Positions 25,585-63,010 of a stretch of 64,000 bases of DNA are shown here, piece by piece. The stretch is from NCBI GenBank assembly GCA_023459335.1, contig JAEWUO010000013.1, positions 47,048 through 111,047 of the forward strand, written 5' to 3'. Made by a program: the position numbers and the translations under genes. Each line of letters opens with the position of its first letter. The first letter of the stretch is position 1. The stretch comes from Bacillota bacterium (GTDB lineage: Bacteria > Bacillota > Clostridia > Christensenellales > CAG-138). The notes under the pieces were generated by a model that did no database searches, was not told the origin of the DNA, and saw nothing but the letters and a program-made list of their open reading frames with translations.

Positions 25585-25638
25585 ACAAGTCACCTCAAAA
25601 ACAGTATAAGACATTATACAATACTTTTTATGATAGTC

Positions 25639-32929: not shown

Positions 32930-33141
32930 ATGTCCTCCTGTTACCATCATTCAATTTCAGTATGAGATACGCCGGAATAATCAACTCGCATGCCATCTGG
33001 CGCATCGATGCCCCAGACGATCCGGTGATTGCCTGAGCTGAAATGCATAATATATCAGGTTAATTATATCGAACAATCGTTCTAATTGCACAGGGCAAAT
33101 TGTGAAAAATAAACGGAGCGGCGGAGCTCCGTTTGAATGAA

Positions 33142-33726: not shown

Positions 33727-33736
33727 GCACGACTCC

Positions 33737-38196: not shown

Positions 38197-39720
38197 TTAG
38201 GATTGTTTCTGTAAATATTGATAAAAGTCCGAATCTTTGTAATTACTAGCAAGAAAATTCTGATTACCCTTAACCGGTTTATCAGACAGTGTTTTCATAT
38301 CATCCGCAACCAGGTTTAATTGATTGTGTACTAACACCGCGTTGACTGCACGGCAATACTCTACGATTGGCGTTGCGGTACCGATAATAAAAATGATTGC
38401 GATTGCAAGTCCAATCGCTCGAATACAAACGTAGCGCTTGCCCTCGAAAACCTTCAAACGGATGCTGCTGTTTAGCGTACGAATCGTCAGCATCATGAGT
38501 ACCAGAAGCGCCGGAATTGACGCGCGCATGGCAAAGTCGGTCGTCGAGCCTATGCTGAACGCGCCTAAGAAGCAAAGCGAAACGATTGAAATCCAATACA
38601 ATATGTTATTTCGATGTTCCTTATATAGAACAATACCTAGAATGCCGAATTCGATCATACAAAAGAGTACATATCTGAGAATGGCGATTCCCCAACCGAT
38701 GGAATCGGCATACAGATTAAATTGAAACGGATTGCCATCCACCGTCCGATTTGTTTTGTAGTACAGATAAAAAATTGGCAATAACACTACGGCGGCAACG
38801 ATATTTTGTACTGAGAATACTTCCTTCAGAAAACAGGAAACCTGTTTTGAGCGAATGAAGGGGATCAGTTTGTGCACTCCCATGCCGAAAAGAAGTAAAA
38901 GCAATCCTACTGCCGGGATAGACGAACTGATAAGAATAATCAGACACAGGAAAACATAATTCCGGACGCTTTTTTCGTTTACAAAAAGAGCTGTGGCGAG
39001 CCATACTGGCGTGGATTGATTGTACACCCAGAATAGTTGCGTAGTGTTTGAACTGTACTGATATGTCCCCGACCACCATTCCAGATGATTCGGTATTGCC
39101 TTAACGTCGAAACGAAGGGAACTAAGAACGCCTATGATGTCCATTCCGCTAAAGAATACGAGCAATATCATAGCCAGAACGATTTTTTTGAACGAATCCG
39201 CTTTTGTGTAGATAAATATCAACAGAGATACGAAAAAAAGGTAGAGAAATGACCAGAGAAACAAAGCGGCATTTGCGACAATCCATGCCGTCTCAAAGTT
39301 AAAAAACAGATTGGCCGCTTTCCCAATGGACGCGGGAATCAGCCAAAAACCTATGTAATAAACCAATGAACACCCGGTCTGTTCATATACGACCGGCCAA
39401 CGAAAAGCAACCAAATCCCTGAATATCGCATTACGGTATTGATGGTCGCTTGACTGATAAAAGAAGCCGCCTTGTCCCGCGAAGTAACACCATAGCAGAA
39501 GTATGACGGATATAAATATAATGGCGTTTATCTTGATCTCATAAACGGCAGATTGGGTTTTCCGCGCATTTAGGAGAATGAGTACCCATGAAGCCAGAAG
39601 TAACGCCGCCGCCGGAACGGCAATCAGCGGCCTTATCCAGCCGATGATAAAAAAGGATGTTGGAAGCAGCAGTAAGAAGTACGCTGCCGCTTGTATATGC
39701 CAGACTTTTATTTTCACCAT
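38197..39720 (-). CDS. AT-rich polytopic membrane protein (>=12 TM); possible GT-C-type glycosyltransferase or polysaccharide polymerase
   Basis: 507 aa, almost entirely hydrophobic helices with short loops (SDHQYRNAIFRDL, WWSGTYQYSSNTTQLFWVYNQSTPVW). The function call is a by-eye guess from architecture only. Confidence 0.6.
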   Translation of the reverse strand: MVKIKVWHIQAAAYFLLLLPTSFFIIGWIRPLIAVPAAALLLASWVLILLNARKTQSAVYEIKINAIIFISVILLLWCYFAGQGGFFYQSSDHQYRNAIFRDLVAFRWPVVYEQTGCSLVYYIGFWLIPASIGKAANLFFNFETAWIVANAALFLWSFLYLFFVSLLIFIYTKADSFKKIVLAMILLVFFSGMDIIGVLSSLRFDVKAIPNHLEWWSGTYQYSSNTTQLFWVYNQSTPVWLATALFVNEKSVRNYVFLCLIILISSSIPAVGLLLLLFGMGVHKLIPFIRSKQVSCFLKEVFSVQNIVAAVVLLPIFYLYYKTNRTVDGNPFQFNLYADSIGWGIAILRYVLFCMIEFGILGIVLYKEHRNNILYWISIVSLCFLGAFSIGSTTDFAMRASIPALLVLMMLTIRTLNSSIRLKVFEGKRYVCIRAIGLAIAIIFIIGTATPIVEYCRAVNAVLVHNQLNLVADDMKTLSDKPVKGNQNFLASNYKDSDFYQYLQKQS

Positions 39721-39914
39721 CTTTTATATATACCGTCTATGCTTCATTGAAAACTGATCCTTACATAATGATCTTCCAATATGGATTTTCCGGACCGGCA
39801 ACGTTCCTGTATTCTTTATCTCTTAAAATCGAGCCGCAGAATTGTATAAACTATCTGAAATTATATACACTCGTATCACTTCTAGTCAAGGGAGCGCATT
39901 ATAACAAAAGACGC

Positions 39915-40080
39915 TTTGGCTGCGGCCTGCTTGCGCTTCGCGCGGCGCAAGCCCCCGCTCCTGAAAGACTCGCACAGCAAGCCTTTTCCCGCCTGACGGC
40001 GGGCGGAGCTTCAAATCCAGTTATATGCCATGCAGCCAATCAAAAAAGGCAGCCGGTTATGGCTGCTTTCCTGATTGGTC
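39915..40080. repeat. Repeat copy A (166 nt) of the tRNA-Pro-flank repeat family
   Basis: Aligns end to end with 41661..41825, with roughly a dozen mismatches or indels by eye. It contains a GCTTGCGC-(8)-GCGCAAGC hairpin, TTCAAATCCAGT, and a GCAGCC-(6)-GGCTGC hairpin. Confidence 0.85.
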
Positions 40081-40425
40081 TAAAACCACAAAAGCAGATA
40101 CAATGAAACGATCGCGGGAGGGGGTTCAAGCTTGAATGCCTAGACTCATATCGACTGATGACCGCCAGTTTTTGAGCAGATCTTTAGGTTGCCTGAAATG
40201 CTAGTCTTATTCTCCCATTAGGAATAAATACAGATACGCGTGATGTATGCCGAATAACGATATCACTTGATATTAACGATTTACTGATTTGCTGCAAAAG
40301 AACCTACTGTACTTATATTAATTAAGGTAAGTGATTGAACACTTTATTCGGTACAATTGGTTACCATTTTGATTTCTTGTGCTTTTTCTGCCCCTTGATA
40401 TACTTCGGCCGCCGCTCGGACAATA

Positions 40426-41301
40426 TTATTGTGCATTCTTACAGATGCGCTCAATTGACACCTCAAAATTGTTACTGTAATCATTCGCCACAAATATCAA
40501 CTTTGCGCCATCAGGGGCAACACCTTCAAAACGTACGTTTTGTTCAACTGTGTTAAAATCATCCACACCTAAAAGCTGTTTTGCGTAATATACCGCAAGT
40601 TGATTTGCTTGCGCACCGCTTAAAGTCCAATCAAGTGAGATAAAAATCGAACCATCCTTGTTATAGTTGATAACATGCAAGGGATCCGGGATTCCAAATT
40701 CATCCAATGTGTCTTGCTTGAGCATAAACTCGTCATAGGATGAAAAGTATTCCATGTCAAGCTGGTATATTTTTGACGCAGTCTCAATATTGGAAAGCTC
40801 AAATCCAATATTAAGCGTGTCATCATCTTCCGCTTCTATGAAACTTAAATAATCACCATCGCCGGTGAATCCTTCGGACATTTTGGAAATCTGCGAACCG
40901 TAACCTTCTTGTAAAACGCGATTAATATTATCAATTACTTCATCTGTTAATGTGCAGTCGTATTGTAAAAAGATAAAATATTCTTCAGATGAAATACTGA
41001 TAGTACCATCCAAAAACCGATCATCCATGCCATCCATCACGTTCGCTTTACCCAACAAATCACGAACGGTTTCATAGGAAAGATCGCGCTTTGGTTCAGG
41101 CGAACATGTTGAAGCAGGCTCCGGCGTTTCAACCGCAGCTGGTGAAATCTCTGGGGAGACGTTCAGATTCTCGACGGTTTTGTTGAGCTGTGCAACTTGA
41201 CTTTCCAGCACGTCAAGACGCGCTAGTATTTCCTGATTACCGCACCCATTTAGTAACAGTACTATAAAGAAACAGAAACAAGGAAGCGCAATCCTTTTCA
41301 T
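40426..41301 (-). CDS. AT-rich lipoprotein, unknown function
   Basis: MKRIALPCFCFFIVLLLNGC has a lipobox (LLNGC). This is followed by a short coiled segment and a ~230-aa globular part. RBS GGAGGAAAAAA precedes the start. Confidence 0.7.
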   Translation of the reverse strand: MKRIALPCFCFFIVLLLNGCGNQEILARLDVLESQVAQLNKTVENLNVSPEISPAAVETPEPASTCSPEPKRDLSYETVRDLLGKANVMDGMDDRFLDGTISISSEEYFIFLQYDCTLTDEVIDNINRVLQEGYGSQISKMSEGFTGDGDYLSFIEAEDDDTLNIGFELSNIETASKIYQLDMEYFSSYDEFMLKQDTLDEFGIPDPLHVINYNKDGSIFISLDWTLSGAQANQLAVYYAKQLLGVDDFNTVEQNVRFEGVAPDGAKLIFVANDYSNNFEVSIERICKNAQ

Positions 41302-41660: not shown

Positions 41661-41825
41661 TTTGGCTGCGGTCTGCTTGCGCTTCACGCGGCGCAAGCCC
41701 CCACTCCTGAAAGACTCGCACAGCGAGCTTTTTCCACCTGACGGCGGGCGGAGTTTCAAATCCAGTTATATGCCATGCGGCCAATCAAAAAAGGCAGCCG
41801 ATTATGGCTGCTTTCTTGATTGGTC
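41661..41825. repeat. Repeat copy B (165 nt), abutting the 3' end of tRNA-Pro
   Basis: See copy A. Its last 5 nt (TGGTC) are the complement of the tRNA-Pro 3' GACCA. Its hairpin GCAGCC-ATAATC-GGCTGC followed by CTTTTTTG on the minus strand serves as the tRNA operon terminator. Confidence 0.85.
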
Positions 41826-41897
41826 GGGGTGACTGGATTTGAACCAGCGACCTTTTGGTCCCGAACCAAACGCGCTACCAAACTGCGCTACACCCCG
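41821..41897 (-). tRNA. tRNA-Pro (anticodon CGG), CCA encoded
   Basis: Reverse complement folds as CGGGGTG-TA-GCGC-AGTTTGGTA-GCGC-G-TTTGG-TTCGGGA-CCAAA-AGGTC-GCTGG-TTCAAAT-CCAGT-CACCCCG-A-CCA. This is a full cloverleaf of 77 nt. Confidence 0.95.
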
Positions 41898-41904
41898 AAA
41901 AAAA

Positions 41905-41980
41905 TGGAGCCAATGTGGGGACTCGGACCCCAGACCTGCTGATTACGAATCAGCTGCTCTACCAACTGAGCTACATTGGC
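41905..41980 (-). tRNA. tRNA-Thr (anticodon CGT), CCA encoded; T-loop reads TCCGAGT
   Basis: Reverse complement folds as GCCAATG-TA-GCTC-AGTTGGTA-GAGC-A-GCTGA-TTCGTAA-TCAGC-AGGTC-TGGGG-TCCGAGT-CCCCA-CATTGGC-T-CCA. This is a good cloverleaf, but position 55 is C instead of the usual T. Confidence 0.85.
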
Positions 41981-45448: not shown

Positions 45449-45724
45449 GTGTATTCCATCCCAATCTTGAAGTATGAGTGCAAATAATGGTTTGAATATA
45501 TCCTTTTCTCAACAAATTGTCAACGCGCTGTTTATTCATTAAATAAATCTAAAAAAATCGAAAATAAATGAATGATGTTTAGCATATTTTTCTTGCGACA
45601 TAAGCTAATAACAAATACAATGAAGATAATAGTATTAAACAATTTTAAGTATTTTTACTCCAAATTCTGTTTGCTTATTAAGTGGTATGCAGACTACCGT
45701 TTCAAGGAATATTTCGGGAGTTGT

Positions 45725-46660
45725 ATGGAAATTTTCACGACAGCTATGTTTAAAAAAATCATGAGTTCTACTCTTGCGATATTCGGAGGACTTGCGATTC
45801 TCCTAGCCAGTAAACCGAAACAGTTACTAATATATATACTTATTATAATTGCCAGTATTGCATTCGTTGTTTTTATTTTTCTAATACCAAATGGAGAATT
45901 ACAACAATCGCTTCGAACAAGAAAGTATTTTTTATTGCGTGTTTCATGTATAGCTGTGGGAATCATAACAAGTGTTCTCGCTTATATTCTCTATCAAGGT
46001 TATTTAGGAATAGGAAATGGAAGAATTGAGAAAGAGAACGAAGTTATAATCAGTGCAACAACTTCGACTCCAACACAAATAACAATAGAGCCAAATTCTC
46101 CTGAGCCCATCACGTTTACACCAACCAACACGGAAGCCCCTACAACTCCAACAAGCTATGCCATGTTTCCTCCGCCTATAATGGAAGCATATCAAGTCGG
46201 GCGTGATTATTTTGATAATGGTAAATTCAATGACGCATATCAATTTTTATTAAAAGCTGCTTTAGCCGGGCATTCAAATGCGCAATTATACACCGGGCGA
46301 TGTCTAAAAGAGGGCGTTAGAGTTGATGAGAATGCTACCTCGGCTGCTGAGTGGTTTACTTTAGCTGCAAATCAAGGAAATGAAGAGGCGCAATATGAAC
46401 TCGGAAGGTGCTATTATGGCGGCAGCGGCGGTGTAGATAAAAATGACCAAGTAGCTTTCTACTGGTTTTCAGCAGCTGCAAGCCGAGGTAGTGGAAATGG
46501 GTTATTATGGACTGGTTATTGTTATCACCATGGATATGGAGTCGAACAGAATTACGATTTAGCAAAAGAGAACTATATTGCAGCAGGTGAAAAGGGACAA
46601 GCATATGCTCAAAAACGCCTCGAAGAATTACAGAACGACATACAAAACGAAGACAAATGA
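45725..46660 (+). CDS. AT-rich membrane-anchored Sel1/TPR-like repeat protein
   Basis: RBS GGGAG, then ATG 45725. Three N-terminal TM helices and a Thr/Pro linker. At least three Sel1-type repeats follow (GHSNAQLYTGRCLKEGVRVDENATSAAEWF; GNEEAQYELGRCYYGG; GNGLLWTGYCYHHGYGVEQNYDLAKENY). Confidence 0.75.
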   Translation: MEIFTTAMFKKIMSSTLAIFGGLAILLASKPKQLLIYILIIIASIAFVVFIFLIPNGELQQSLRTRKYFLLRVSCIAVGIITSVLAYILYQGYLGIGNGRIEKENEVIISATTSTPTQITIEPNSPEPITFTPTNTEAPTTPTSYAMFPPPIMEAYQVGRDYFDNGKFNDAYQFLLKAALAGHSNAQLYTGRCLKEGVRVDENATSAAEWFTLAANQGNEEAQYELGRCYYGGSGGVDKNDQVAFYWFSAAASRGSGNGLLWTGYCYHHGYGVEQNYDLAKENYIAAGEKGQAYAQKRLEELQNDIQNEDK

Positions 46661-47077: not shown

Positions 47078-48412
47078 ATGGGAAGCGACCCTTTATTCTG
47101 GGAATTGATCCTGCAGGCGGTGCTGATCGCGTTAAACGCGGTGTTCGCCTGCGCGGAGATAGCAATCATCACAATGAACGACGCGAAGCTGGCCAAGCTT
47201 GCCTCGGAAGGAGACAAGAAGGCGATCAAGCTTGCGCGGCTCACGAGCCAGCCGGCACGTTTTTTAGCGACAATACAGGTCGCCATCACGCTGTCGGGGT
47301 TCTTGGGCAGCGCGTTTGCGGCGAATAACTTCGCCAAGCGCATTACCGAAGCTTTCGTGCAGAGCGGTTCAACGATTCCCGCGGCCACGGTCAACACGGT
47401 TTCGGTTTTGCTGATCACGCTGATTCTGACGTTCTTTACGCTGGTATTCGGCGAACTCGTCCCGAAGCGCGTCGCGATGAAAAACGCGGAAAAGCTCGCG
47501 CTGAATATGGCTGGCATGATCAATGGCGTGTCGATCGTATTCGCGCCGCTCGTCTGGCTGCTCACGGTTTCGACCAACGGCATCCTTCGCCTCCTCGGGA
47601 TCGATCCCAACGCGGAGGACGAGGAAGTCACAGAGGAAGAGATCCGCATGATGGTGGATGTCGGCAGCGAAAAGGGAACGATCGAAGCCACCGAAAAGGA
47701 AATGATTCACAATGTCTTCGAGTTTGACAACGTCTCCGCGGAGGACATCCTGACCCACCGTACGCAGGTGGACATCCTATGGCTGGACGAGAGCGATGAA
47801 GACTGGGCGGAGGTCATCCACAACTCGCGGCATTCGTATTACCCCATCTGCCGGGACAGCTCTGACGACGTGGTCGGCATTCTCGATGCGAAGACGTATT
47901 TTCGCCTCAGCGACCGCACGCGCCAAAATGTAATGGCGCAGGCGGTGCAGCCAGCGCGTTTTGTGCCCGAGACGATCAAGGCGGACGACCTGTTCCTCGA
48001 CATGAAGCGCAGCCGCAATCATTTCGCCGTTGTCATGGACGAATACGGCGGCATGTGCGGCATCGTGACGATGAACGACCTCATCGAAGTGATCGTCGGC
48101 GATATCGACGAAACGGAAGACGACGGCGAACCCGTCATCACGCTCGTTTCGGACGGTGTGTGGCGCACGCAGGGGTCCGTACCCCTCGAAGACATCTCCG
48201 AGGCGATCGGCTGCCCGCTGCCGAGCGATGAATTCGACACGCTCAACGGTCTCGTTTTCAGCGTACTCAATGAAATTCCGGAGGACGGAACGGTGTTTTC
48301 CGTGGACGCGGGCTGCCTGCACGTAGACGTGCGGGAGATGAAAAACCACGGCATCGAGCGCGCGGAAATTTCGCTTCTGCCGCCGCAGCTGCTGGAAGAA
48401 CAGCCGAAATAG
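47078..48412 (+). CDS. HlyC/CorC (CNNM) family transporter: DUF21 membrane domain + CBS pair + CorC_HlyC
   Basis: 444 aa with the N-terminal 4-TM DUF21 (LNAVFACAEIAIITMND). Also VSAEDILTHRTQV and CBS repeats, and a C-terminal transporter-associated domain. Confidence 0.9.
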   Translation: MGSDPLFWELILQAVLIALNAVFACAEIAIITMNDAKLAKLASEGDKKAIKLARLTSQPARFLATIQVAITLSGFLGSAFAANNFAKRITEAFVQSGSTIPAATVNTVSVLLITLILTFFTLVFGELVPKRVAMKNAEKLALNMAGMINGVSIVFAPLVWLLTVSTNGILRLLGIDPNAEDEEVTEEEIRMMVDVGSEKGTIEATEKEMIHNVFEFDNVSAEDILTHRTQVDILWLDESDEDWAEVIHNSRHSYYPICRDSSDDVVGILDAKTYFRLSDRTRQNVMAQAVQPARFVPETIKADDLFLDMKRSRNHFAVVMDEYGGMCGIVTMNDLIEVIVGDIDETEDDGEPVITLVSDGVWRTQGSVPLEDISEAIGCPLPSDEFDTLNGLVFSVLNEIPEDGTVFSVDAGCLHVDVREMKNHGIERAEISLLPPQLLEEQPK

Positions 48413-53247: not shown

Positions 53248-53694
53248 ATGCTGATCGGTTCATTTGAACATATGCTGGATGCAAAAGGCCGCGTGTTCAT
53301 TCCCGCCAAATGGAGAGAAACGCTCGGCGACACGCTCGTGATCACACTGGGCCTTCTGGAGACGCAGACGGCGAAGTGCCTCTCCGGCATGTCCGTCGAA
53401 GAGTGGGAACGCTTTTCCCATAAGCTCTCCGCGCTGCCGGTGACCGATACGAGCGGACAGGCGATCAGAAGGAAGCTTTACTCCATGGCCGCCGCCTGCG
53501 AGATCGACAAGCAGGGGCGCATCCTGATCCCCGCGCAGCTCAGGGACATGACGGGGCTCGTCAAGGATGCGACGCTGATCGGCGTAGGCGACCGCGTGGA
53601 GATCTGGAATCCGGAGACGCTCGCGGGGTACAACGCCCTTTGCGAGGAAAACTATGGCGACGCGCTCGCGCATCTCGCGGCGCTCGGCATATGA
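53248..53694 (+). CDS. mraZ: Transcriptional regulator MraZ
   Basis: MLIGSFEHMLDAKGRVFIPAKWR and a second KQGRILIPAQLR half give the duplicated SpoVT/AbrB-like fold. Confidence 0.95.
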   Translation: MLIGSFEHMLDAKGRVFIPAKWRETLGDTLVITLGLLETQTAKCLSGMSVEEWERFSHKLSALPVTDTSGQAIRRKLYSMAAACEIDKQGRILIPAQLRDMTGLVKDATLIGVGDRVEIWNPETLAGYNALCEENYGDALAHLAALGI

Positions 53695-54632
53695 GCGGAC
53701 AGTATTCGCACATTCCGGTGCTGCTGCGCGAGACGCTGGAGCTTCTCTCGCCCGAGCGCGGCGGCATCTTCGTAGACGGAACGCTCGGCGGCGGAGGCCA
53801 TGCCGAAGCGGTTCTGACCCGCTTGCCGGAAAGCGGCAGGCTCATTGGCATCGACAGGGACTGGGAAGCCGTGCACGCGGCGGGGGACCGGCTGAAAACA
53901 TATGGCAGCCGTTTTACCGCGTTGCACGGCAACTTTTTTGATATGAGCGCGCTTCTTCTGGAAATCGGCGTGACCGAGGTGAACGGAATCCTGCTCGACC
54001 TGGGCGTTTCCAGCTATCAGCTGGATGCGCAGGCGAGGGGGTTTTCGTATAAGGCCGATTCTCCGCTGGACATGCGCATGGATCAGACCGCAGCGCTCTC
54101 CGCGCGGGAAGTGGTAAACAATTATTCCGAAGAGGAGCTCGCCCGCGTGATCTGGACGTACGGGGAGGAGCGGTTCAGCCGGAGGATTGCGGAGCGAATT
54201 TGTCGGGCGCGTGAACAATATCCCATCGAAACGACGCTTCAGCTGGCGCAGATCGTTCGGGACGCGATCCCGGCCAAGTACAGAAACGAGCCGCAGCATC
54301 CCGCGCGGCGGACTTTCCAGGCGCTGCGCATCGAAGTAAACGGCGAATTGAAAGGTCTCGATCAGGCGGTGGAGGATGCCTGCGATCTGTTGCAAAAAGG
54401 CGGAAGACTGTGTATAATTACATTTCATTCACTGGAGGATCGCATCGTCAAACAGGCATTTCGCAGGTTTGAACATCCCTGCACCTGCCCGCCGTCCGCA
54501 CCGGTCTGCGTCTGCGGAAAGGAGCCGAAAGCGAAGATCCTCACAAAGAAACCGCTGACTGCCTCCCCCGAGGAGGAAGCGCGCAACTCCCGTTCGACCA
54601 GCGCAAAGCTCCGCTGCATGGAAAAGATCTAG
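53691..54632 (+). CDS. rsmH: 16S rRNA (cytosine1402-N4)-methyltransferase
   Basis: HIPVLLRETLELL, DGTLGGGGHA, DLGVSSYQLD and FHSLEDRIVK. The ATG at 53691 overlaps the mraZ stop. Confidence 0.95.
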   Translation: MSGQYSHIPVLLRETLELLSPERGGIFVDGTLGGGGHAEAVLTRLPESGRLIGIDRDWEAVHAAGDRLKTYGSRFTALHGNFFDMSALLLEIGVTEVNGILLDLGVSSYQLDAQARGFSYKADSPLDMRMDQTAALSAREVVNNYSEEELARVIWTYGEERFSRRIAERICRAREQYPIETTLQLAQIVRDAIPAKYRNEPQHPARRTFQALRIEVNGELKGLDQAVEDACDLLQKGGRLCIITFHSLEDRIVKQAFRRFEHPCTCPPSAPVCVCGKEPKAKILTKKPLTASPEEEARNSRSTSAKLRCMEKI

Positions 54633-54701: not shown

Positions 54702-55283
54702 TTGGATATTCGTTTTGAGGACGATCGCAAAAAGGGCAGGGCTCCGACGACGCGGCTGAATCTGCCGAATCAGCAGGAGGAGGAAGAGCAGGCGGGACGC
54801 GACGGCCGCCCGCATTCGGGACGGCGTTCCGTGCGTGAGCCGGGCGTGCGTGTGGAGAAGCCGGAGATGACGTCCATGGGGCGCATAGGCCTGATCATCA
54901 GCGGGTTTCTATTCGCCGGCATGGTGCTCTTTACGCTGTCGGGATATGAGCGCATTTCGCGCGCGTATGCGGACATCAACGCGCTCAATGACGAGATCGA
55001 ATCCACAGATCTGCGGATCAACGAACTGGACGTGCAGATCGAGTGCGCGGTGACCATTCAGGAAGCGCAGAAAGTGGCGGAAGCGTACGGCATGCGCTAT
55101 CCCGAGAAAAGCCAGTATGTAAGAATCGGCGATCCGCTGCCGTTTAGCAACGAGGAACCATCCGCAACGGACAGCGGAAACACGACCACAGAAACGCCGG
55201 CGGCGCCGGAAACGACACCGGAAACGTCGCCGGGACCAGCGGATACAACAGGCGGGGGGGAACAACCGTCTGCGGGCGGTTGA
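54702..55283 (+). CDS. ftsL: FtsL-like cell-division protein (single TM + coiled coil) with charged N-terminal and P/T-rich C-terminal extensions
   Basis: Position after rsmH. TM segment IGLIISGFLFAGMVLFTL, then a coiled coil INALNDEIESTDLRINELDVQIE. The track start is TTG 54702. Internal ATGs (MTSMGRIG) are alternative starts. Confidence 0.7.
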   Translation: MDIRFEDDRKKGRAPTTRLNLPNQQEEEEQAGRDGRPHSGRRSVREPGVRVEKPEMTSMGRIGLIISGFLFAGMVLFTLSGYERISRAYADINALNDEIESTDLRINELDVQIECAVTIQEAQKVAEAYGMRYPEKSQYVRIGDPLPFSNEEPSATDSGNTTTETPAAPETTPETSPGPADTTGGGEQPSAGG

Positions 55284-55307: not shown

Positions 55308-57509
55308 ATGGCAAAGACGACGACTCCCGCGCCGAAGATCAAACGCAAACTCGTTCTCCTCATGGTGTTTTCCGGCCTCCTGCTTCTGCTTCTGGCACTG
55401 CGCCTCTCGCAGGTGATGATCGTGCAGGGGCCCGAACTGAAAACCAAGGCGGAAACGCAATGGACTCGGCGGCAGAATCTCGCCGCGCAGCGCGGCAAGA
55501 TCACCGACCGAAACGGACTCGTGCTTGCGCAGAGCGGAACGGCTTATCGCGTGCTCGCGAACCCGCCCTCCATCGCGGCGGACGACCGCGTGCGCATCGC
55601 GACCGAGGTTTCCGATATTCTCGGACTCAACTACGATTATGTGCTCGAGCGCATCTCCGATCCGGACCGTCTGCAGGTGCAGCTCAAACGGCAGGTGGAG
55701 AGCTCGGTCATCGACCAGCTTGAAGCGCTGCAGCTGGGCAACGGAATCACCTACACCACCGACATGAAGCGCTACTACCCCTTCGGCCAGCTCTTCACGC
55801 AGCTGATCGGCTTTACCGGAATCGAGACGGAGGGGCAGACAGGGCTTGAGGCGGAGTACAACTCCTACCTCGCGGGCGTCGCCGGACGGCTCGTCATCGA
55901 AGTGGACCGAAAGAACAACCCGCTTTCCTACGGCGAAGAATACTATGTCGCGCCGACGGAAGGTTACAATATGGGAATCACGGCGGATTCCGTGGCCCAG
56001 AATTACCTGGAGAAGTACGTCCAGCAATGCTACGAGATTAACCGCGCAAGCACCGTTTCCGGTCTCATCATGGACCCGAACACGGGCGAAATCCTCGCCA
56101 TCAGCACGTATCCTTCCTTTGATCTGAACAATCCACCGCGCGACATGGTCACCGAACTCATGTCGATGTCCCGCGCGCGAATCGTGACGGACACATACGA
56201 AGCGGGCTCGATGTTCGACATGGTTACGGCCGCAGCGGCGATCGATTCCGGCGCCGCCGAGCAGGGCAGCACCTATCGCTGCTCGACCAACGGCGCTTAT
56301 AAAATCTTCCGACTGGAGAAGGTCCGCTGCTGGTATACGGCGGGGCACGGCAGCGAGACGCTGTCCGAAGCGCTCGGCAACTCCTGCAACGTCGCCATGA
56401 TGGATATGGCGCTCGCGACCGGCGTGGATAAATTTTACGACTATATTTACGCGTTTGGCTTTAACGAAAAGACGGACTGCGGAATCCCAAGCGAGGACAC
56501 GGGCGAGGTCATCCACAGAAAATACATCCGCGACAGCGACCTCGCGCGCATTTCGTTCGGCGAGAACATCACCACCACCGCGATCCAGATGGCGAACGCC
56601 TTCTGCGCGATCATCAACGGCGGAACGCTCATGCAGCCCTATGTCGTGGACAATATCACGGCGCCGGACGGCACGGTGATCCTGAAAAACGAGCCGACGA
56701 TCCTCCGGCGCGTCATCAGCTCCAACACATCCGCAACGATGCGCACCCTGCTGCAGTATGTCGCGGAAAAAGGCAACGGCAGCAACGCGCAGGTGCCGAA
56801 TTACACCGTCGGCGGCATTACGGGGGTATCCAGAAAATTTGAGGAAGACGGCGTAACCCCGTCCCGCACGCGTGTGGTTGCGTCGTACATCGGTTTCCTG
56901 CCGGTCAACGATCCGCAGCTCGTGTGCATGATCATGATCGACGAACCGCAGGTACCCTATATGGAAGCCAGCAGTTCCGCTGGATACTGGGTATCCAGGA
57001 TATTTTCGGACCTTGTGCAGTATTACGGCATTCTGCCGGATACCACAACAAGCTTGACTTCGGTTCCGAACGTAGTCGGCCTGACCGCGAAAGAAGCGGC
57101 TTACGAGCTCGCAAAAGCAGGGTTTACGACGTATACGGTCCCGACCGAGGATACCGCGATGGTCGTTACGCAGTATCCCGCGGCGGAAGAAGAGGTTGCT
57201 TCCGGGTCGGTCGTCATCCTCTATACGACGATGACCACGTTTAACGACGATGGGTTATACAAGGAGCAGGTCTCCGTTCCGAACGTCGTCGGCCGCCGAA
57301 GACAGGATGCATTTGACAAACTCACGGAACTTGGGCTTTTCCTGAGCTTCGACAAGACGCAGTGCACGGGGCAGATCGATACGCAGTCCATCGAAGAGGG
57401 TACTATGGTCGATCCCGGGACGACGATTTACGTCACGTTCCCTTCGCCGACGCCGACGGAGGAACCCACGCCAACACCGGTACCCGGAGCTCCGACGCCG
57501 GCGCCGTAA
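55308..57509 (+). CDS. Class B penicillin-binding protein (SpoVD/FtsI position) with two PASTA repeats; catalytic motifs degenerate
   Basis: 733 aa with a TM anchor, dimerisation domain, transpeptidase fold and two PASTA repeats (SVPNVVG...). Box 1 reads SMFD (not SxxK), box 2 reads SCN, and box 3 reads ITG (not KTG). See findings. Confidence 0.9.
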   Translation: MAKTTTPAPKIKRKLVLLMVFSGLLLLLLALRLSQVMIVQGPELKTKAETQWTRRQNLAAQRGKITDRNGLVLAQSGTAYRVLANPPSIAADDRVRIATEVSDILGLNYDYVLERISDPDRLQVQLKRQVESSVIDQLEALQLGNGITYTTDMKRYYPFGQLFTQLIGFTGIETEGQTGLEAEYNSYLAGVAGRLVIEVDRKNNPLSYGEEYYVAPTEGYNMGITADSVAQNYLEKYVQQCYEINRASTVSGLIMDPNTGEILAISTYPSFDLNNPPRDMVTELMSMSRARIVTDTYEAGSMFDMVTAAAAIDSGAAEQGSTYRCSTNGAYKIFRLEKVRCWYTAGHGSETLSEALGNSCNVAMMDMALATGVDKFYDYIYAFGFNEKTDCGIPSEDTGEVIHRKYIRDSDLARISFGENITTTAIQMANAFCAIINGGTLMQPYVVDNITAPDGTVILKNEPTILRRVISSNTSATMRTLLQYVAEKGNGSNAQVPNYTVGGITGVSRKFEEDGVTPSRTRVVASYIGFLPVNDPQLVCMIMIDEPQVPYMEASSSAGYWVSRIFSDLVQYYGILPDTTTSLTSVPNVVGLTAKEAAYELAKAGFTTYTVPTEDTAMVVTQYPAAEEEVASGSVVILYTTMTTFNDDGLYKEQVSVPNVVGRRRQDAFDKLTELGLFLSFDKTQCTGQIDTQSIEEGTMVDPGTTIYVTFPSPTPTEEPTPTPVPGAPTPAP

Positions 57510-57614: not shown

Positions 57615-59048
57615 ATGCTGCTTTCGGAACTGGCAATGGCGTCCGGCCTGCGCTATGAAGGCGAAGACACGGATATCGTCTCCATCGAATACGATTCGCG
57701 CAAGGTCAAAAAAGGCAGTATGTTCTGCTGTATTATCGGTTCGCTTCTGGACGGGCATTCGTTTGCGGAGGCGGCCGTGCAGAGCGGCGCCATCGCGCTT
57801 CTCGTCGAGCGGGAACTGCCGATTGCCGTTCCGCAGCTCGTTGTGAAAAACGCGAGGAAAGCGATGGCGGAGATGGCCGCCGCATTCTACGGATACCCGC
57901 AGCGGGAGATGATGATGCTGGGCGTCACCGGAACGAACGGAAAGACCACCACGACCTACATGGTCAAGGCGATCGCCGAACAGGCCGGCAAAAAAGTCGG
58001 CGTGATCGGCACCATCCGGAACCTCATCGGCAACGAGAGCATCCACACCGACCGCACGACGCCGGAATCCGTCGATCTCTTCCGAATCCTCCGGATGATG
58101 GCGGACGCGCATGTGGACCTTGTGGTCATGGAGACGAGCTCCCACGCGCTGGAGCAGTTCCGCGTGCACGGTATCAAGTTTGACGTAGGCCTCTTCACAA
58201 ACCTCACGCAGGATCACCTCGATTACCACAAGTCGTTCGATAATTACCTTGCGGCGAAAAAGATCCTATTCCTCAACAGCAGGAAGGCGGTCGTCAACGT
58301 GGACGATCCGTATTCCGCGCGCATCATGGAAGGGCTGAACATTCCCATCCTGACCTTCGGCGTGCGCGACCGCGCGGATATTTCCGCGACGGATATCGAC
58401 ATTACGACCGACGGCGTGAGATTCGACCTGCACACGCCCGAGGGCGAGGTGCTCATGAACCTCGCGATTCCCGGGCTGTTTTCGGTGTTTAACGCGATGG
58501 GCGCGGCCGGTATGGCGCTGGCGGTCGGCATCAAGCTCAGCGCGGTCAAGGCGGGGCTGGAATCGCTCACAAGCGTTTCCGGCAGGCTTGAGCCGGTGAA
58601 AACGAACAGGGGCTTCTCCGTATTCGTCGATTACGCGCATACGCCCGACGCGCTGGAAAACGTGCTGAAAACCGTGCAGCAGTTCGCCAAGGGACGCGTG
58701 ATCTGCGTCTTTGGATGCGGCGGAGACCGCGACCGCGCGAAAAGGCCGATTATGGGCGAGATCGCCGGGCGGTTTTCCGAGCTTGCGGTCATCACGAGCG
58801 ACAACCCGCGTACAGAGGATCCGATGGCCATTATCGAATCCATCGAAGACGGGATGAAGCGCAGCGGCACGAGGTATACGGTCATCGAAAACCGCAAGGA
58901 AGCCATACGCTACGCGCTGCTGGCCGCGCAGGGCGACGACGTGATCATGATTGCCGGAAAAGGCCACGAGAATTATCAGGAGATCAACGGAACGAAATAT
59001 CATTTCGACGATAAAGAGATTGTGGAAGAGCTCCTTGATGAGCTGTAA
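57615..59048 (+). CDS. murE: UDP-N-acetylmuramoyl-L-alanyl-D-glutamate--2,6-diaminopimelate ligase
   Basis: GVTGTNGKTTT, TSSHALE, DHLDYH and AAKKILF. The DNPR motif (SDNPRTEDP) indicates meso-DAP specificity. AGKGHE is also present. Confidence 0.95.
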   Translation: MLLSELAMASGLRYEGEDTDIVSIEYDSRKVKKGSMFCCIIGSLLDGHSFAEAAVQSGAIALLVERELPIAVPQLVVKNARKAMAEMAAAFYGYPQREMMMLGVTGTNGKTTTTYMVKAIAEQAGKKVGVIGTIRNLIGNESIHTDRTTPESVDLFRILRMMADAHVDLVVMETSSHALEQFRVHGIKFDVGLFTNLTQDHLDYHKSFDNYLAAKKILFLNSRKAVVNVDDPYSARIMEGLNIPILTFGVRDRADISATDIDITTDGVRFDLHTPEGEVLMNLAIPGLFSVFNAMGAAGMALAVGIKLSAVKAGLESLTSVSGRLEPVKTNRGFSVFVDYAHTPDALENVLKTVQQFAKGRVICVFGCGGDRDRAKRPIMGEIAGRFSELAVITSDNPRTEDPMAIIESIEDGMKRSGTRYTVIENRKEAIRYALLAAQGDDVIMIAGKGHENYQEINGTKYHFDDKEIVEELLDEL

Positions 59049-59180
59049 GATTTCGAACATGGATTTATCCGCATCCGCCGCTATACCGACCGGTATTAAG
59101 GCGGGTGCGTTTTATATGTATGCGAAAAGAAGAGGAAATTGGGATTGTCCGCCGCGGGTTTTCGGGGGTATAATACCGGT

Positions 59181-60218
59181 ATGTTTACAATCGTACTGAC
59201 CGCGCTGACGGCGTTTTGCATCGTCTGGCTTCTTGGCCCGCTGCTGATTCCGATGCTGCAGCGGCTGACATCCGAGAATAAGCCTCACGAGACCGAGCCG
59301 GAACCGCAGCCGCAGCCGCAGAAGAAGAAACAGCAGCAGGCGACGAAAAGACCGCCCGCACCGACGATGGGCGGCATAATGATCCTACTTGCGGTCGCAG
59401 TGGCTACGCTTGTTTTCGGGCTGGATGGAATGGAGTTTGCGCTGCCCGCGCTGGTCGCGATGCTCGCTCTGGGCGTGCTGGGGTTTATAGACGATTTTAC
59501 CAAGACGCGCGGCGCCGAAGGGGAGGGTCTGAAACGCTATCAGAAACTTCTCGTCGAACTGATCGTAGCGGGGATCGTAGCCGTCTGGGCGTATCGCTCG
59601 CCTTTGATCGGTTCCTCGCTTTATCTGCCCGTCTCCGGCTCAGATTGGGATATCGGCGTGTGGTACATCCCGCTGTCGGCGCTCGTCGTGCTCGGCATGA
59701 CGAACGCGGCGCAGATGACCGACGGCATGGATGGTCTTGTGACCGGCGTGAGCATGGTATACTCGCTGTTTATGATCGCCATACTTGCTGCGATGGCGCT
59801 GACGGCCAATCAGGCGGGCGAACTGCTGCTGGGGGGTAATCTCACCGGAACGGCGGTGTTCTCCGCGGCCGTCGCGGGCGCCTGCGTCGGGTTTTTACGT
59901 TATAACACTTATCCCGCGCGCGTGCAGCCCGGCTCCACCGGCGCGCTTGCGCTGGGTGGCGCGGTGGCGATGCTTGCGCTTCTCAGCCGCTCGATCCTGC
60001 TGCTGCCGCTGACGGGGTTCTGCTTCCTTGCGAGCATGGGTTCGGTGGTCCTGCAGGCGTTCAGCCGCAGGCGGGAGGATGGAAAGCGGCTTTTTCGCGC
60101 CGTGCCGATCCACCGGCACTTCGAACAGGCGGGGCACCCCGCGCCGCAGATCGCTTCAATGTACGCCATTGTCACGGCGGTGCTCTGCGCGATCTGCCTG
60201 CTGCCGTATCTCAAATAA
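59181..60218 (+). CDS. mraY: MraY-family phospho-MurNAc-pentapeptide translocase homologue, atypical at invariant positions
   Basis: 10-TM PNPT fold in the canonical murE-mraY-murD position, with PTMGG, GFIDDF and MTDGMDGL present. VQPGSTGA replaces VFMGD(T/V)GS, HRH replaces HHH, and a low-complexity PQ/K-rich loop replaces the GQxIRxxGPxxHxxK loop. I start at ATG 59181. Confidence 0.85.
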   Translation: MFTIVLTALTAFCIVWLLGPLLIPMLQRLTSENKPHETEPEPQPQPQKKKQQQATKRPPAPTMGGIMILLAVAVATLVFGLDGMEFALPALVAMLALGVLGFIDDFTKTRGAEGEGLKRYQKLLVELIVAGIVAVWAYRSPLIGSSLYLPVSGSDWDIGVWYIPLSALVVLGMTNAAQMTDGMDGLVTGVSMVYSLFMIAILAAMALTANQAGELLLGGNLTGTAVFSAAVAGACVGFLRYNTYPARVQPGSTGALALGGAVAMLALLSRSILLLPLTGFCFLASMGSVVLQAFSRRREDGKRLFRAVPIHRHFEQAGHPAPQIASMYAIVTAVLCAICLLPYLK

Positions 60219-60265: not shown

Positions 60266-61618
60266 ATGGAACAACGTAAAAAAGCGCTGATCGTCGGCAT
60301 GGCGAAGAGCGGAGTCGGCGCGGCCAAACTGCTTGCGCGCGGCGGATGGGACGTGATCGTCAACGACAAAAAGGCAGAAATCGCCGGACTGAGCGAGCAG
60401 CTTGCCGGCGTGTCCGTCGAGTGGCATTTGGGCGAAGAGCCGCAGAGCCTGCTAAACGGCGTATCGCTGGTCGTGATCAGCCCCATCATCCCGATGACGG
60501 CGCAGTTCGTAAAGGACGCGCAGGCGCGCGGCATCGAGGTCATCGGCGAGATCGAGCTAGGGTACCGTTACAGCTACGGAGAATTCGTCTGTATCACCGG
60601 AACGAACGGCAAGACGACCTGCACCGCGCTGACCGGCGAAATGTTCAAAAACGGCGGACGGCATACGTTCGTGCTTGGCAACATCGGAGTGGCGATCTCC
60701 GAGCATGCGCTGGACACGCGCGCTGGCGACGTGGTCGTCGCCGAAACCGCAGCGCTGCAGCTGGAAGGAAACGTACGCTTTCATGCGCGCGCGGCGGGGG
60801 TTTGCAATATTACGGAAGACCATCTCGACCACTTCGGAACGATGGAAAACTACATTGCCGCGAAGTGCAAGATTTTCGATCACCAGACGTCGGAGGATAT
60901 CGCGGTGCTGAACTACGACGACGCGGTGGTGCGCGGCATGGCGCGGCTGACTCCCGCGCGCGTCTATTATTTTTCTCGGAAAAGCGAGGTTCCGCGAGGG
61001 CTGTTTCTGCGCGGGGATGAGGTGATTTACCGAGACGAAGAGGGAGAGTACGCGCTCATCCGCGCGGAGGAGATCAAAATCCCCGGCGGGCACAACCTCG
61101 AAAACGCGATGCTCAGTTCTCTGCTCGCGCTTGGTATGGGCATTTCTCCCGATGCGGTGCGCGAAACGCTGAAGACATTTCCCGGCGTGGAACACCGGAT
61201 CGAATTCGTGCGGGAGTTTGGCGGCGTCCGCTATATCAACGACTCCAAGGGCACCAACCCCGACTCGACGATCAAGGCGATTCAGGCGATGACGCGCCCG
61301 ACCGTGCTCATCCTCGGCGGCTACGACAAGCACAGCGACTTCCACGAGCTTTTCGAGCATTTTCACGGCAGCAGGCTCAAGGCCATCGTCGTGCTCGGAG
61401 AAACAAAACAGAAAATTCTCGATACCGCGCGGGACACGGGGTATCTGGGATATTGCCACGCGACGGGTACGTTTGAGGACGCGGTTTCCTGCGCTCGCAT
61501 GATGGCGGCTCCCGGCGATGCGGTGCTCCTTTCGCCCGCCTGCGCAAGCTGGGATATGTTCGATAACTTTGAACAGCGTGGCAGGGTATTTAAGCAGATC
61601 GTGAATCAATTCCGATAA
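60266..61618 (+). CDS. murD: UDP-N-acetylmuramoylalanine--D-glutamate ligase
   Basis: ITGTNGKTT, NITEDHLDHF, AAKCKIF, EHRIEFV, NDSKGTN and SPACASWDMF..FEQRG. Confidence 0.95.
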   Translation: MEQRKKALIVGMAKSGVGAAKLLARGGWDVIVNDKKAEIAGLSEQLAGVSVEWHLGEEPQSLLNGVSLVVISPIIPMTAQFVKDAQARGIEVIGEIELGYRYSYGEFVCITGTNGKTTCTALTGEMFKNGGRHTFVLGNIGVAISEHALDTRAGDVVVAETAALQLEGNVRFHARAAGVCNITEDHLDHFGTMENYIAAKCKIFDHQTSEDIAVLNYDDAVVRGMARLTPARVYYFSRKSEVPRGLFLRGDEVIYRDEEGEYALIRAEEIKIPGGHNLENAMLSSLLALGMGISPDAVRETLKTFPGVEHRIEFVREFGGVRYINDSKGTNPDSTIKAIQAMTRPTVLILGGYDKHSDFHELFEHFHGSRLKAIVVLGETKQKILDTARDTGYLGYCHATGTFEDAVSCARMMAAPGDAVLLSPACASWDMFDNFEQRGRVFKQIVNQFR

Positions 61619-61663: not shown

Positions 61664-62224
61664 TTATTCGTTGATAATGTCGATCTGGCAGGGTTTCATG
61701 GCGTTCAGCGCGTTGATGTGCCCCTCCGGCGTCGCGCCCGCGCAGGCCGCCGCATCCACGACGATCTTCGCCTCGGGGTAAAACGCCTTGACGAGCAGCG
61801 CGTTGCTGATGACGCAGATGTCGGTGCAGAGGCCGACGAGCGTGACTTCCTCCGGTTCTTCGCCGCCGAGCATCTCGTGGATGCGCATCGGAAGGCTCAC
61901 GCCGCCGAAGGTGTCCTTCGCGATCATGTGCTGTTCGTCCGCGGCGTTTTTGTGCATGAGCGCCATCCAGACGGAAGCGTTCGGCGCCCAGCCGTCGGTT
62001 CCCGCGATGCAGTGCTTGACGGGGAGTTTCTTTCCTTCCTGCGTTTCGAGGTATTTCTCGGTATGCGTGTCCAGCGTGTACAGGATCAGCCCGTCGAAGC
62101 CGAGGATGCGCTGTACGACCGCTTCGACGATCGCCTGCGCTTCCTTAGTACCGAGCGAACCTGTGATGAAGTCGTTCTGCATGTCCACGACGACGAGGAC
62201 TTTTTTGTTCAGCGGCTGTTCCAT
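61664..62224 (-). CDS. Isochorismatase-family cysteine hydrolase (nicotinamidase PncA-like)
   Basis: VVVDMQNDF, and GLCTDICV containing the catalytic Cys. 186 aa. Confidence 0.85.
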   Translation of the reverse strand: MEQPLNKKVLVVVDMQNDFITGSLGTKEAQAIVEAVVQRILGFDGLILYTLDTHTEKYLETQEGKKLPVKHCIAGTDGWAPNASVWMALMHKNAADEQHMIAKDTFGGVSLPMRIHEMLGGEEPEEVTLVGLCTDICVISNALLVKAFYPEAKIVVDAAACAGATPEGHINALNAMKPCQIDIINE

Positions 62225-62260: not shown

Positions 62261-63010
62261 TCAGCGGGGCATAGCCCCGGATACGACGTACAACAGCACG
62301 CCCGCCGCGACGGAAGCGTTGAGCGACTCGGCCCGGCCGCGCATGGTCAGGCGGAAACTTTCGCAGAGCGCGCCGACTTCCGCACTCACGCCGCTGCCTT
62401 CGCTGCCGATCACGAGCGCGACGCCGGGGCTCAGGACTGGCAGCGTTTCTTTGCCGCGCAGGTCCCCGCAGAGGCAGGTGAATCCCTGGTGCTTCATCTT
62501 GTCCAGCTCGGTCGTCAGTTCGCCCTGCCAGACGGACAGATGATAGTTGGAGCCCATCGCGGCGCGCAGCGTTTTGGGTGCGTATGCGTCCGCACAGGCG
62601 GGGGAAAGCAGCACGCCCGCGGCGCCGAACGCGTCCGCCGAGCGCAGGATCGCGCCGACGTTGCCGGGGTCCTGCACGCCGTCTAGCACGACGGTCAACC
62701 CGACGGGGTACGTTTCCGGCGGGTTCAGGGACGGCGTCCCCACCACGGCGACCACGCCCTGCGGCGTCTGGCTCTCGCAAAGGGACTCGAGGACGCTTCT
62801 TGTTACGGTATAGACCGCTTCGATTTCCGGCGCGGAGAATGGGAACCCGTCCTCCACAAAGAGCGCGCCGACGCGCGCGCCGGAGGCGATCGCTTCGCGC
62901 ACGAGCTTGCCGCCCTCGATCAGGTGCAGGCCGCTTGCCTTGCGTTCCTTTCTCAGCAGGAGCTTGCGCGCTTCCTTCACTCGCTCATTCGAGCGGCTCT
63001 CGATGATCAT
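62261..63010 (-). CDS. TrmH/SpoU-family RNA 2'-O-methyltransferase
   Basis: 249 aa with an N-terminal substrate-binding subdomain. SpoU motifs are VLDGVQDPGNVGAILRSA, LVIGSEGSGVS and SLNASVAAGVLLY. Confidence 0.85.
   Translation of the reverse strand: MIIESRSNERVKEARKLLLRKERKASGLHLIEGGKLVREAIASGARVGALFVEDGFPFSAPEIEAVYTVTRSVLESLCESQTPQGVVAVVGTPSLNPPETYPVGLTVVLDGVQDPGNVGAILRSADAFGAAGVLLSPACADAYAPKTLRAAMGSNYHLSVWQGELTTELDKMKHQGFTCLCGDLRGKETLPVLSPGVALVIGSEGSGVSAEVGALCESFRLTMRGRAESLNASVAAGVLLYVVSGAMPR

Follow-up and report, generated by a model that had tools for sequence, protein, structure and literature searches.

Replacement of both catalytic Mg2+ ligands and the central histidine in a clade of Clostridia MraY orthologues

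Introduction

A 64,000-nucleotide stretch of a Clostridia genome (Christensenellales, CAG-138; GenBank assembly GCA_023459335.1, contig JAEWUO010000013.1, positions 47,048 to 111,047) – referred to here as the window – carries a dcw (division and cell wall) gene cluster, mraZ-rsmH-ftsL-PBP-murE-mraY-murD (PBP, penicillin-binding protein), that diverges from gyrB/gyrA (Table 1). Its mraY gene occupies the canonical slot between murE and murD, as recognized in an earlier note on this DNA that was made from the sequence alone. The product belongs to the polyprenyl-phosphate N-acetylhexosamine-1-phosphate transferase (PNPT) superfamily, and it has replaced the two residues (N192 and D267) by which PNPTs hold the catalytic Mg2+, along with the uracil-stacking F264, the central histidine of the HHH motif and the signature of cytoplasmic loop A. 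Residue numbers are those of Escherichia coli MraY unless another organism or the window protein is named.

MraY is regarded as universal, single-copy and essential. The model of its catalysis is framed by the DDD and HHH motifs, which also define where five classes of nucleoside antibiotics bind. D98, D99, K116, N171, D174, D231, H289 and H290 are catalytically important in the Bacillus subtilis enzyme, and loops A and E are held to confer substrate specificity (PMC5039524). In Aquifex aeolicus MraY, D265 coordinates Mg2+ and forms inhibitor hot spot HS5, the uracil pocket consists of F262, K70, G194, L195 and D196, an adjacent pocket contains T75, N190 (HS1), D193 and G264, and H325 (HS2), on the loop E helix, touches four of the five inhibitor classes (PMC6606608). 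In the eukaryotic superfamily member DPAGT1, N185 and D252, which correspond to N192 and D267, bind the Mg2+, which combines with Arg301 into a 'pyrophosphate pincer'; 7% of activity remains in D252A and 1.2% in N185A, and D252N is five-fold more active (PMC6218659). Literature searches returned no relevant paper on degenerate, paralogous or pseudo-enzyme bacterial MraY, and none on bacterial MraY orthologues without the third Asp or the central His or on their recurrent evolution; judged by these searches, recurrent natural orthologues of this kind appear to be new.

Here, we describe the variant, the clade to which it belongs, and its more degenerate homologues. The sequences are best explained, at about an even chance in our estimation, by a still-active lipid I synthase with a rebuilt, arginine-based diphosphate site, and we weigh this explanation against several others as the evidence on each is given.

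The variant gene and its locus

The window protein is a member of the MraY family with the ten-helix PNPT fold. It matches PF00953 (E = 6.6e-28, hidden Markov model [HMM] search) and passes the MraY equivalog model TIGR00445 by a small margin (204.5 bits against a cutoff of 192.05), and there is no HMM match in it to PF10555, the MraY-specific loop A signature. An AlphaFold2 model built with 97 homologues has a mean predicted local distance difference test score (pLDDT) of 83.5 and a predicted template-modelling score of 0.85, with low confidence at residues 34-53 (pLDDT < 50) and 271-310 (about 60). Compared by Foldseek, the model resembles all solved MraY structures (template-modelling [TM] score about 0.8, E about 1e-18) and, at a TM score of about 0.68, human DPAGT1. 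Two starts can be considered for the gene: database gene calls choose the TTG at 59145, with a GAGG (59132-59135) 9 nt upstream, and the ATG at 59181 agrees with the N-terminus of most homologues (344-345 residues). A TATAAT hexamer lies between the two, at 59169-59174.

Table 1. Features of the dcw locus and of the variant mraY gene (window coordinates)
Feature	Coordinates	Strand	Remarks
mraZ	53248-53694	+	dcw cluster
rsmH	53688-54632	+	dcw cluster
ftsL-like	54702-55283	+	dcw cluster
PASTA-containing class B PBP	55308-57509	+	dcw cluster
murE	57615-59048	+	dcw cluster, upstream of mraY
mraY variant, coding sequence	59181-60218	+	345 residues from ATG 59181; product P0001, 357 residues from TTG 59145
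Loop A, residues 30-60	59268-59360	+	Pro/Gln/Lys-rich low-complexity linker, pLDDT < 50
PTMGG, residues 61-65	59361-59375	+	kept; P61, G64 and G65 invariant across the variant and canonical alignment
DD pair, D104 and D105 (GFIDDF)	59490-59495	+	kept; E. coli D115 and D116
Q178	59712-59714	+	replaced second Mg2+ ligand; E. coli N192, A. aeolicus N190, B. subtilis N171, DPAGT1 N185
MTDGMDGL, loop C	59715-59738	+	D184 (E. coli D198, A. aeolicus D196, uracil-pocket Asp) kept
Q249-P250-G251-S252	59925-59936	+	E. coli F264-M265-G266-D267; uracil-stacking Phe and Mg2+-binding third Asp lost
A307	60099-60101	+	E. coli M321; Met to Ala
H311-R312-H313	60111-60119	+	in place of HHH
murD	60266-61618	+	last dcw gene in the window genome
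Isochorismatase-family gene	61664-62224	-	convergent, after murD
SpoU-type methylase gene	62261-63010	-	convergent, after the isochorismatase-family gene

The same locus – gyrA-gyrB, then mraZ-rsmH-ftsL-PBP-murE-mraY-murD, followed by the isochorismatase, SpoU methylase and rplT genes – is shared by variant genomes (the window, L001, L089 and L090) and by canonical sisters (L005 and L091), and the variant is therefore an orthologous replacement of canonical MraY and not a paralogue. The variant loci looked up include ones on a circular 2.85-Mb contig, a 3.40-Mb chromosome (OW818651.1) and a 3.67-Mb contig.

No ftsW, murG, murA or ftsQ gene lies downstream of murD in the window. The same truncation after murD is present in the canonical sister L005, and L091, L095, L092 and L099 keep murD-ftsW-murA-ftsQ. 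A link between the variant and loss of the SEDS (shape, elongation, division and sporulation) gene, or sporulation, considered because the cluster ends at murD, was dropped, as canonical L005 is equally truncated and the degenerate L095 and L092 keep the longer cluster. In L001 an abortive-infection type HEPN_AbiU2 gene (12487-13257 of that locus) separates murD from the isochorismatase gene; neither the window nor the other relatives have it.

Replaced and retained active-site residues

The alignment register was set by HMM and phmmer alignments to the MraY structures of Clostridium bolteae (5JNQ), A. aeolicus (4J72) and E. coli (8G01). By phmmer, ARVQPGSTGALALGG of the variant aligns onto AKVFMGDTGSLALGG, where the consensus of the structures is A(K/Q)VFMGD(T/V)GSLALGG, and VPIHRHFE aligns onto APIHHHFE. 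The earlier note had read, by eye, a Ser codon in place of the third Asp and P-I-H-R-H-F-E in place of the histidine motif. Its register agrees with these alignments: the raw sequence has TCC for S252 at 59934-59936, and CAC CGG CAC, aligned on PIHHHFE, for H311-R312-H313. R312 (CGG, 60114-60116) corresponds to E. coli H326, A. aeolicus H325 and B. subtilis H290.

Three motifs of the family are consequently broken. The DDD motif retains D104 and D105 but has S252 at the D267 position; NxxNxTDGxDGL reads N-A-A-Q-M-T-D-G-M-D-G-L, with N189, D195 and D198 kept and N192 replaced by Gln; and the loop E motif PxHHHxExxG reads P-I-H-R-H-F-E-Q-A-G. The PTMGG, GFIDDF and MTDGMDGL elements, which the note had listed as retained, are all present in the raw sequence, and the changes it listed are real, although the list was incomplete in that it missed N192 to Gln, F264 to Gln, M265 to Pro, M321 to Ala and E335 to Ala. 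Of the residues lining the uridine pocket in A. aeolicus MraY (K70, G194, L195, D196, N255 and F262), D196, G194 and N255 are kept, L195 is Met and F262 is Gln; the K70 equivalent is Lys or Arg in most members of the variant clade described below.

How unusual these changes are can be judged from a control set of 80 MraY loci from diverse bacterial phyla, drawn from among the matches listed in a scan of genome collections with a mixed variant and canonical profile, none of which belong to the variant clade. D267, H326, N192, M265, M321, E335, H65 and K68 are each present in 80/80 controls, and F264 and E300 each in 78/80; the window protein deviates at every one of these positions. The loss of the Glu in the VVETLSV block (E300 to Ser), also remarked on in the earlier note, is real but not specific to the variant, because the canonical sisters P0081, P0090 and P0071 carry Ser too, and it is a lineage trait outside the variant signature. 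A Glu gained at position 137 (Gln to Glu in 74/76 variant clusters) was considered as a relocated metal ligand and dropped, since Glu is also found there in 13/80 canonical controls.

Loop A is the low-complexity stretch that the note had described. It lacks the canonical KFGQxxRxxGPxSHxxKxGT signature, of which only PTMGG and a Lys-rich patch are left, and reads TSENKPHETEPEPQPQPQKKKQQQATKRPPA ahead of PTMGG. The DNA at 59304-59339 consists of short tandem repeats, with CCGCAG three times, AAG three times (read as AAGAAGAAA) and CAG three times. Slippage in these repeats could account for the variation in loop length among clade members (334 to 344-345 residues).

A large variant clade

The variant is not an oddity of one genome, as it could have been taken to be: it is fixed throughout a large clade and occupies the orthologous dcw locus there. 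Among the best 120 database matches to the window protein, 76 clusters (58-100% identity to the query) carry the variant state and the remaining 44 (48-63%) are fully canonical. Conservation of R312 and S252 in relatives had been proposed as a check, and the two differ in kind: position 326 is Arg in 76/76 variant clusters, and position 267 is Ser in 65, Ala in seven, Asn in two, and Tyr and Gly in one each. Position 321 is Ala in 75/76. Position 192 is His (38), Arg (17), Gln (11), Lys (2) or Tyr (2), position 133 is Met (46), Lys (23), Leu (6) or Val (1), and position 195 is divided between Asp (38) and Glu (37).

Other parts of the active site are invariant or nearly so. D115 and D116 are Asp in 75/75 clusters that cover the column (one of the 76 is gapped), D198 and H327 are present in 76/76, Q307 and E329 in 75/76, and H325 and N257 in 74/76; no stretch of the variant protein varies less than the loop E block. 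Loop A is conserved within the clade as ..EPPPQPxKKKQxPPPKPPxPTMGG, about nine residues longer than the canonical loop and with about 11 Pro. Over positions 192, 264, 267 and 326, all 44 canonical proteins have one basic residue and 57/76 variants have two. One clade member, P0040, falls under the TIGR00445 cutoff with 185 bits.

A sequencing or assembly error, or a dying pseudogene, has practically no probability as an explanation, with nothing but the unusual residues themselves to suggest it, and is already refuted: the identical window protein is present on independent assemblies (ENA, NCBI and Logan), the 76 clusters have intact open reading frames, including ones in circular or near-complete genomes, and dN/dS (the ratio of non-synonymous to synonymous substitution rates) is 0.1-0.25.

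The clade also bears on whether the reaction itself has changed, such that an active PNPT uses another donor, acceptor or metal – a transition metal bound by His, for example – and makes a product other than lipid I. The His at position 192 in 38/76 clusters would suit such an enzyme, the remodelled elements are loops A and E, which are held to set specificity (PMC5039524), and H-R-H resembles the R-H-R sugar/diphosphate wall of DPAGT1 (PMC6218659; PMC9494639). Yet position 192 is not fixed (His, Arg, Gln, Lys or Tyr, with Gln in the window protein itself), the gene is still flanked by, and probably co-expressed with, murE and murD, two genes with highly conserved products (MurE 93-95% identical), and lipid I synthesis would be left unaccounted for. 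We consider a changed reaction highly improbable.

Parallel origins and more degenerate homologues

The variant state has arisen more than once. P0074 (L007/L008) and canonical P0080 (L098) form a species-level pair that offers a natural 'before and after' of its acquisition: the two proteins are 90% identical and the MurE C-termini 99%, with a synonymous rate (dS) for mraY of 0.49 and an overall dN/dS of 0.10. The 33 differences of P0074 from P0080 include D267G, H326R, M321A, F53S, S64P, G70S and L193Q, all at positions invariant in the controls. In a neighbour-joining tree of the non-loop columns, P0074 falls within a canonical group, and P0085/P0088 are separate from the main variant clade of 72 clusters that holds the window protein. 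The trio of D267 loss, H326R and M321A thus has at least three independent origins among close relatives.

More distant homologues were collected by a profile search of 1.84 billion representative proteins and one further search. P0165 has N192H, F264R, D267R and H326M, P0195 has D267K and H-R-H, and P0231 has D267E and H-R-Q; H326R occurs in both P0195 and P0231, M321A in P0074, P0195 and P0231, and D267 has become Arg or Lys in other lineages. The degenerate homologues that were looked up sit between murE and murD (loci among L092, L094 and L095-L097), and the MurD and FtsW proteins beside them are well conserved. L095 and L092 have MurD proteins that are 74% identical and MraY homologues that are only about 35% identical. 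TIGR00445 scores form a graded series, from 306-318 bits in the canonical sisters through 284 and 221 to about 200 in the window clade, and on to 185, 170, 145 and 133; NCBI labels proteins like P0165 and P0231 'hypothetical'. In other lineages again, D267N is the sole change at the key positions checked (P0146, P0212 and P0382) or is accompanied by two or three further key-position changes (P0344 and P0400), and the third Asp is thus not strictly universal in nature.

The parallel appearance of the same substitutions in related organisms of similar habitats also raises the question of what drove them. An active enzyme could have been shedding the contacts of a natural inhibitor – a nucleoside antibiotic, a bacteriocin or a phage lysis protein – in gut and digester communities, its fast evolution reflecting an arms race; this is a proposal about the driver and does not conflict with a still-active lipid I synthase. 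The changes fall on the A. aeolicus hot-spot residues F262, K70, N190 (HS1), H325 (HS2) and D265 (HS5) (PMC6606608), and the evolutionary rate is persistently raised. Against this, neither an inhibitor nor an organism that makes one is known from these habitats, dN/dS is well under 1 wherever measured, the cost would be high as the same residues serve the natural substrate, and the strongly degenerate lineages are unlike fine-tuned resistance alleles. Remodelling driven by resistance is improbable on this evidence.

Search for a second MraY

Apart from the variant, no PNPT open reading frame was seen in the window or over 63 kb of flanking sequence from three other variant genomes (about 127 kb in four genomes). 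Three megabase contigs (2,853,364, 3,395,507 and 3,673,039 bp) likewise have no further match among those listed, down to 48% identity, and a recent in-genome duplicate of mraY is therefore excluded on these three. MraY-family genes adjoin dcw genes (murE and/or murD/ftsW) in 11 context look-ups and at 79/80 control loci, the exception being L076, which has no dcw neighbour on its full-length 12,981-bp locus. P0361, a canonical protein near the second degenerate lineage, was considered as a second copy and dropped, being the dcw orthologue of another lineage. A substitute, if there is one, may be a distant, horizontally acquired copy or a non-MraY enzyme.

Evolutionary rates and the question of activity

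The variant genes evolve quickly, and in an unusual pattern. In pairs of variant genomes MurE is 93-95% identical, MurD 85-92%, the PBP 80-88% and MraY 66-81%, with non-synonymous rates (dN) of 0.04 for murE, 0.05-0.09 for murD and 0.13-0.27 for mraY, and dN/dS of 0.11-0.25 for mraY against 0.04 for murE. Two canonical genomes have 74% identity in MraY, 79% in MurE and 72% in MurD, and their active-site loops are 87% identical (dN 0.10, dN/dS 0.04) compared with 68% for the rest of the protein. The cytoplasmic active-site loops are the slowest part of canonical MraY and the fastest part of the variant, where the excess divergence is concentrated. Selection has been released on much of the catalytic face – the Mg2+/nucleotide half-site – yet not on all of it. 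The earlier note had offered two readings, an MraY impaired in catalysis and a PNPT whose metal or substrate chemistry has changed; the release at the half-site fits both, and neither is singled out by it.

Several considerations favour a still-active enzyme. H326R and M321A recur with the loss of D267 and then freeze, which random decay would not predict; the DD pair, D198, N257, H325 and H327 stay invariant; and basic residues gather around the former metal site. The gene is orthologous to canonical mraY with no substitute visible in the contexts examined, and a second enzyme shared across the group is unlikely because the canonical sisters are so strongly constrained in their loops. DPAGT1, moreover, still works with a neutral residue in place of its Mg-binding Asp and already engages the diphosphate through an Arg, and natural MraY proteins exist in which D267N is the only change at the key positions checked.

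A second body of observations weighs against activity. Three of the eight residues important for catalysis in B. subtilis MraY are changed in the window protein (N171, D231 and H290), so that essential catalytic residues have been lost, and the equivalent of a fourth, K116, has become Met in 46/76 clade members. The net charge of loop B goes from +3.7 to -0.8 in the variants. The replacements of D267 and N192 are variable and therefore are not themselves a new catalytic device. The ratio of MraY to MurD divergence, (1-idMraY)/(1-idMurD), is 1.9-2.5 in variant pairs, compared with a median of 0.76 and a maximum of 1.15 in 119 control pairs, which looks like relaxation. Constraint is inverted, the loops being 58-77% identical in variant pairs (dN 0.16-0.38) and the rest 70-83%, and dN/dS is about 0.1-0.3 where that of MurE is 0.04. 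Finally, some homologues are heavily eroded: P0262 and P0336 carry D115E and lack the HHH motif, P0329 has RKR for HHH, and P0339 is in a similar condition. Judged by their sequences these proteins can hardly be active, and a substitute route to lipid I would therefore exist somewhere in the group.

Such observations are what a pseudoenzyme or repurposed scaffold would predict. The protein would then make no useful lipid I, an unseen second enzyme – a horizontally acquired mraY or another PNPT, possibly borne on a mobile element – would substitute, and the scaffold might bind undecaprenyl phosphate or lipid-linked precursors, or organize the MurE/MurD/PBP machinery, as its nucleotide/Mg2+ half-site decays. 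Relaxed constraint at a former active site in a protein that keeps its fold is indeed what is seen; replacements at positions 267, 192, 133 and 195 vary and the positive charge of loop B is lost; the graded TIGR00445 series ends in proteins of the murE-murD slot without HHH and in some cases without an intact DD pair, and members such as those like P0165 and P0231 are called hypothetical; and dcw-encoded SEDS and class B PBP genes of sporulating Firmicutes provide a precedent for re-specialization (PMC10693644). However, a subset of active-site residues and the new Arg are invariant, with D198, N257, H325 and H327 fixed amid drifting neighbours, and random decay leaves unexplained the recurrent and then invariant H326R and M321A. 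No second MraY-family gene was seen in the contexts examined, nor, among the listed matches down to 48% identity, on the three megabase contigs. The sisters are strongly constrained, so that every one of the independent origins, at least three to five in number, would call for a substitute of its own, and the youngest case, P0074, is under strong purifying selection. We consider a pseudoenzyme less likely than the still-active synthase, and its most serious competitor.

A proposed mechanism and its implications

If the variant is active, the dcw-encoded MraY orthologue would have left the canonical Mg2+-dependent PNPT configuration and would presumably remain the phospho-MurNAc-pentapeptide translocase of the cell. 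The guanidinium of R312, on the loop E helix facing the metal site, could neutralize and orient the uridine diphosphate (UDP) moiety in place of a protein-bound Mg2+, a role that may be likened to the Arg301 half of the Arg-Mg2+ pincer of DPAGT1, the geometry being drawn from the literature. The residues that once bound the metal, and parts of the nucleotide-binding loops, would become dispensable, and would therefore drift. Such an enzyme should need protein-bound Mg2+ less, or not at all, and should be poorly recognized by nucleoside inhibitors that contact D265, N190, F262 and H325 (A. aeolicus numbering).

More broadly, it is possible, at somewhat less than an even chance, that several lineages of uncultured gut, rumen and digester Clostridia make lipid I either by an Arg-assisted PNPT phosphotransfer free of metal ligands, or by an unrecognized enzyme as the dcw MraY decays or is repurposed. 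A widespread and repeatedly evolved variant gives a direct experimental handle on the roles of the Mg2+ ligands, the central His and the uracil-stacking Phe, and predicts intrinsic insensitivity to MraY inhibitors; if the protein is instead a pseudoenzyme, an alternative route to lipid I is to be discovered. There is also a practical consequence, in that clade members near or under the TIGR00445 cutoff may receive a 'hypothetical' label and register as an absent marker gene in genome-quality or phylogenomic pipelines that use this model.

Other features of the window

Third-position GC content is about 0.75 through most of the window but 0.30-0.48 in genes at 24514-25614, 31541-35059, 38197-41301 and 45572-46660, most of which have no Pfam match and which were probably acquired horizontally; the last of these codes for a Sel1-repeat protein. 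Genes for tRNA-Pro(cgg) at 41821-41897 and tRNA-Thr(cgt) at 41905-41980 (minus strand) sit among them, and there is no rRNA gene in the window. Adjoining gyrA is a CNNM/CorC-family gene (47078-48412, plus strand) with CNNM, CBS and CorC_HlyC domains, a putative Mg2+/Co2+ efflux protein. A membrane sensor with Cache-like and GGDEF diguanylate cyclase domains is encoded at 36182-37783 (minus strand), next to an esterase-family gene at 35302-36234.

Comparison with known systems

The variant shares with canonical MraY the ten-helix PNPT fold, the murE-murD slot, PTMGG, the DD pair, D198, N257, Q307, H325, H327 and E329, and is 29-32% identical to the solved structures and 57-61% to the sisters L005 and L091. 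It differs in having Ser for the third Asp, Gln for N192 and F264, HRH for HHH, Ala for M321 and E335, and a Pro-rich loop A, in active-site loops that evolve faster than the membrane core, and in a TIGR00445 score about 100 bits under that of the sisters (204.5 versus 306-318).

The degenerate homologues (P0165, P0195, P0231, P0262 and P0323-P0339) resemble the variant in their position between murE and murD and in the loss of D267, N192, F264, H326 and loop A, and H-R-H, M321A and basic residues at the former metal site are frequent among them. They are only 31-38% identical to the window clade while the MurD proteins are 64-67% identical, and in several of them D198, N257, all of the HHH motif or one of the two DD-pair Asp residues has gone. 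They score under the TIGR00445 cutoff, and some are annotated as hypothetical. The Firmicutes proteins SpoVD and SpoVE offer a conceptual likeness, a dcw gene that changes its role yet keeps its position (PMC10693644), although in that case the catalytic residues are kept and a second paralogue is known, and nothing ties the MraY variant to sporulation.

Eukaryotic GPT/DPAGT1, the UDP-N-acetylglucosamine (UDP-GlcNAc):dolichyl-phosphate GlcNAc-1-phosphate transferase, belongs to the same superfamily and has the same fold, although its sequence similarity to the window protein is marginal (E about 1e-4). It differs in keeping N185 and D252, in using Mg2+, UDP-GlcNAc and dolichyl phosphate, and in having a 52-residue CL9 domain. 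Its Arg301, in the loop after transmembrane helix 9, binds the UDP diphosphate, and the natural D267N MraY proteins P0146, P0212 and P0382 echo its hyperactive D252N mutant.

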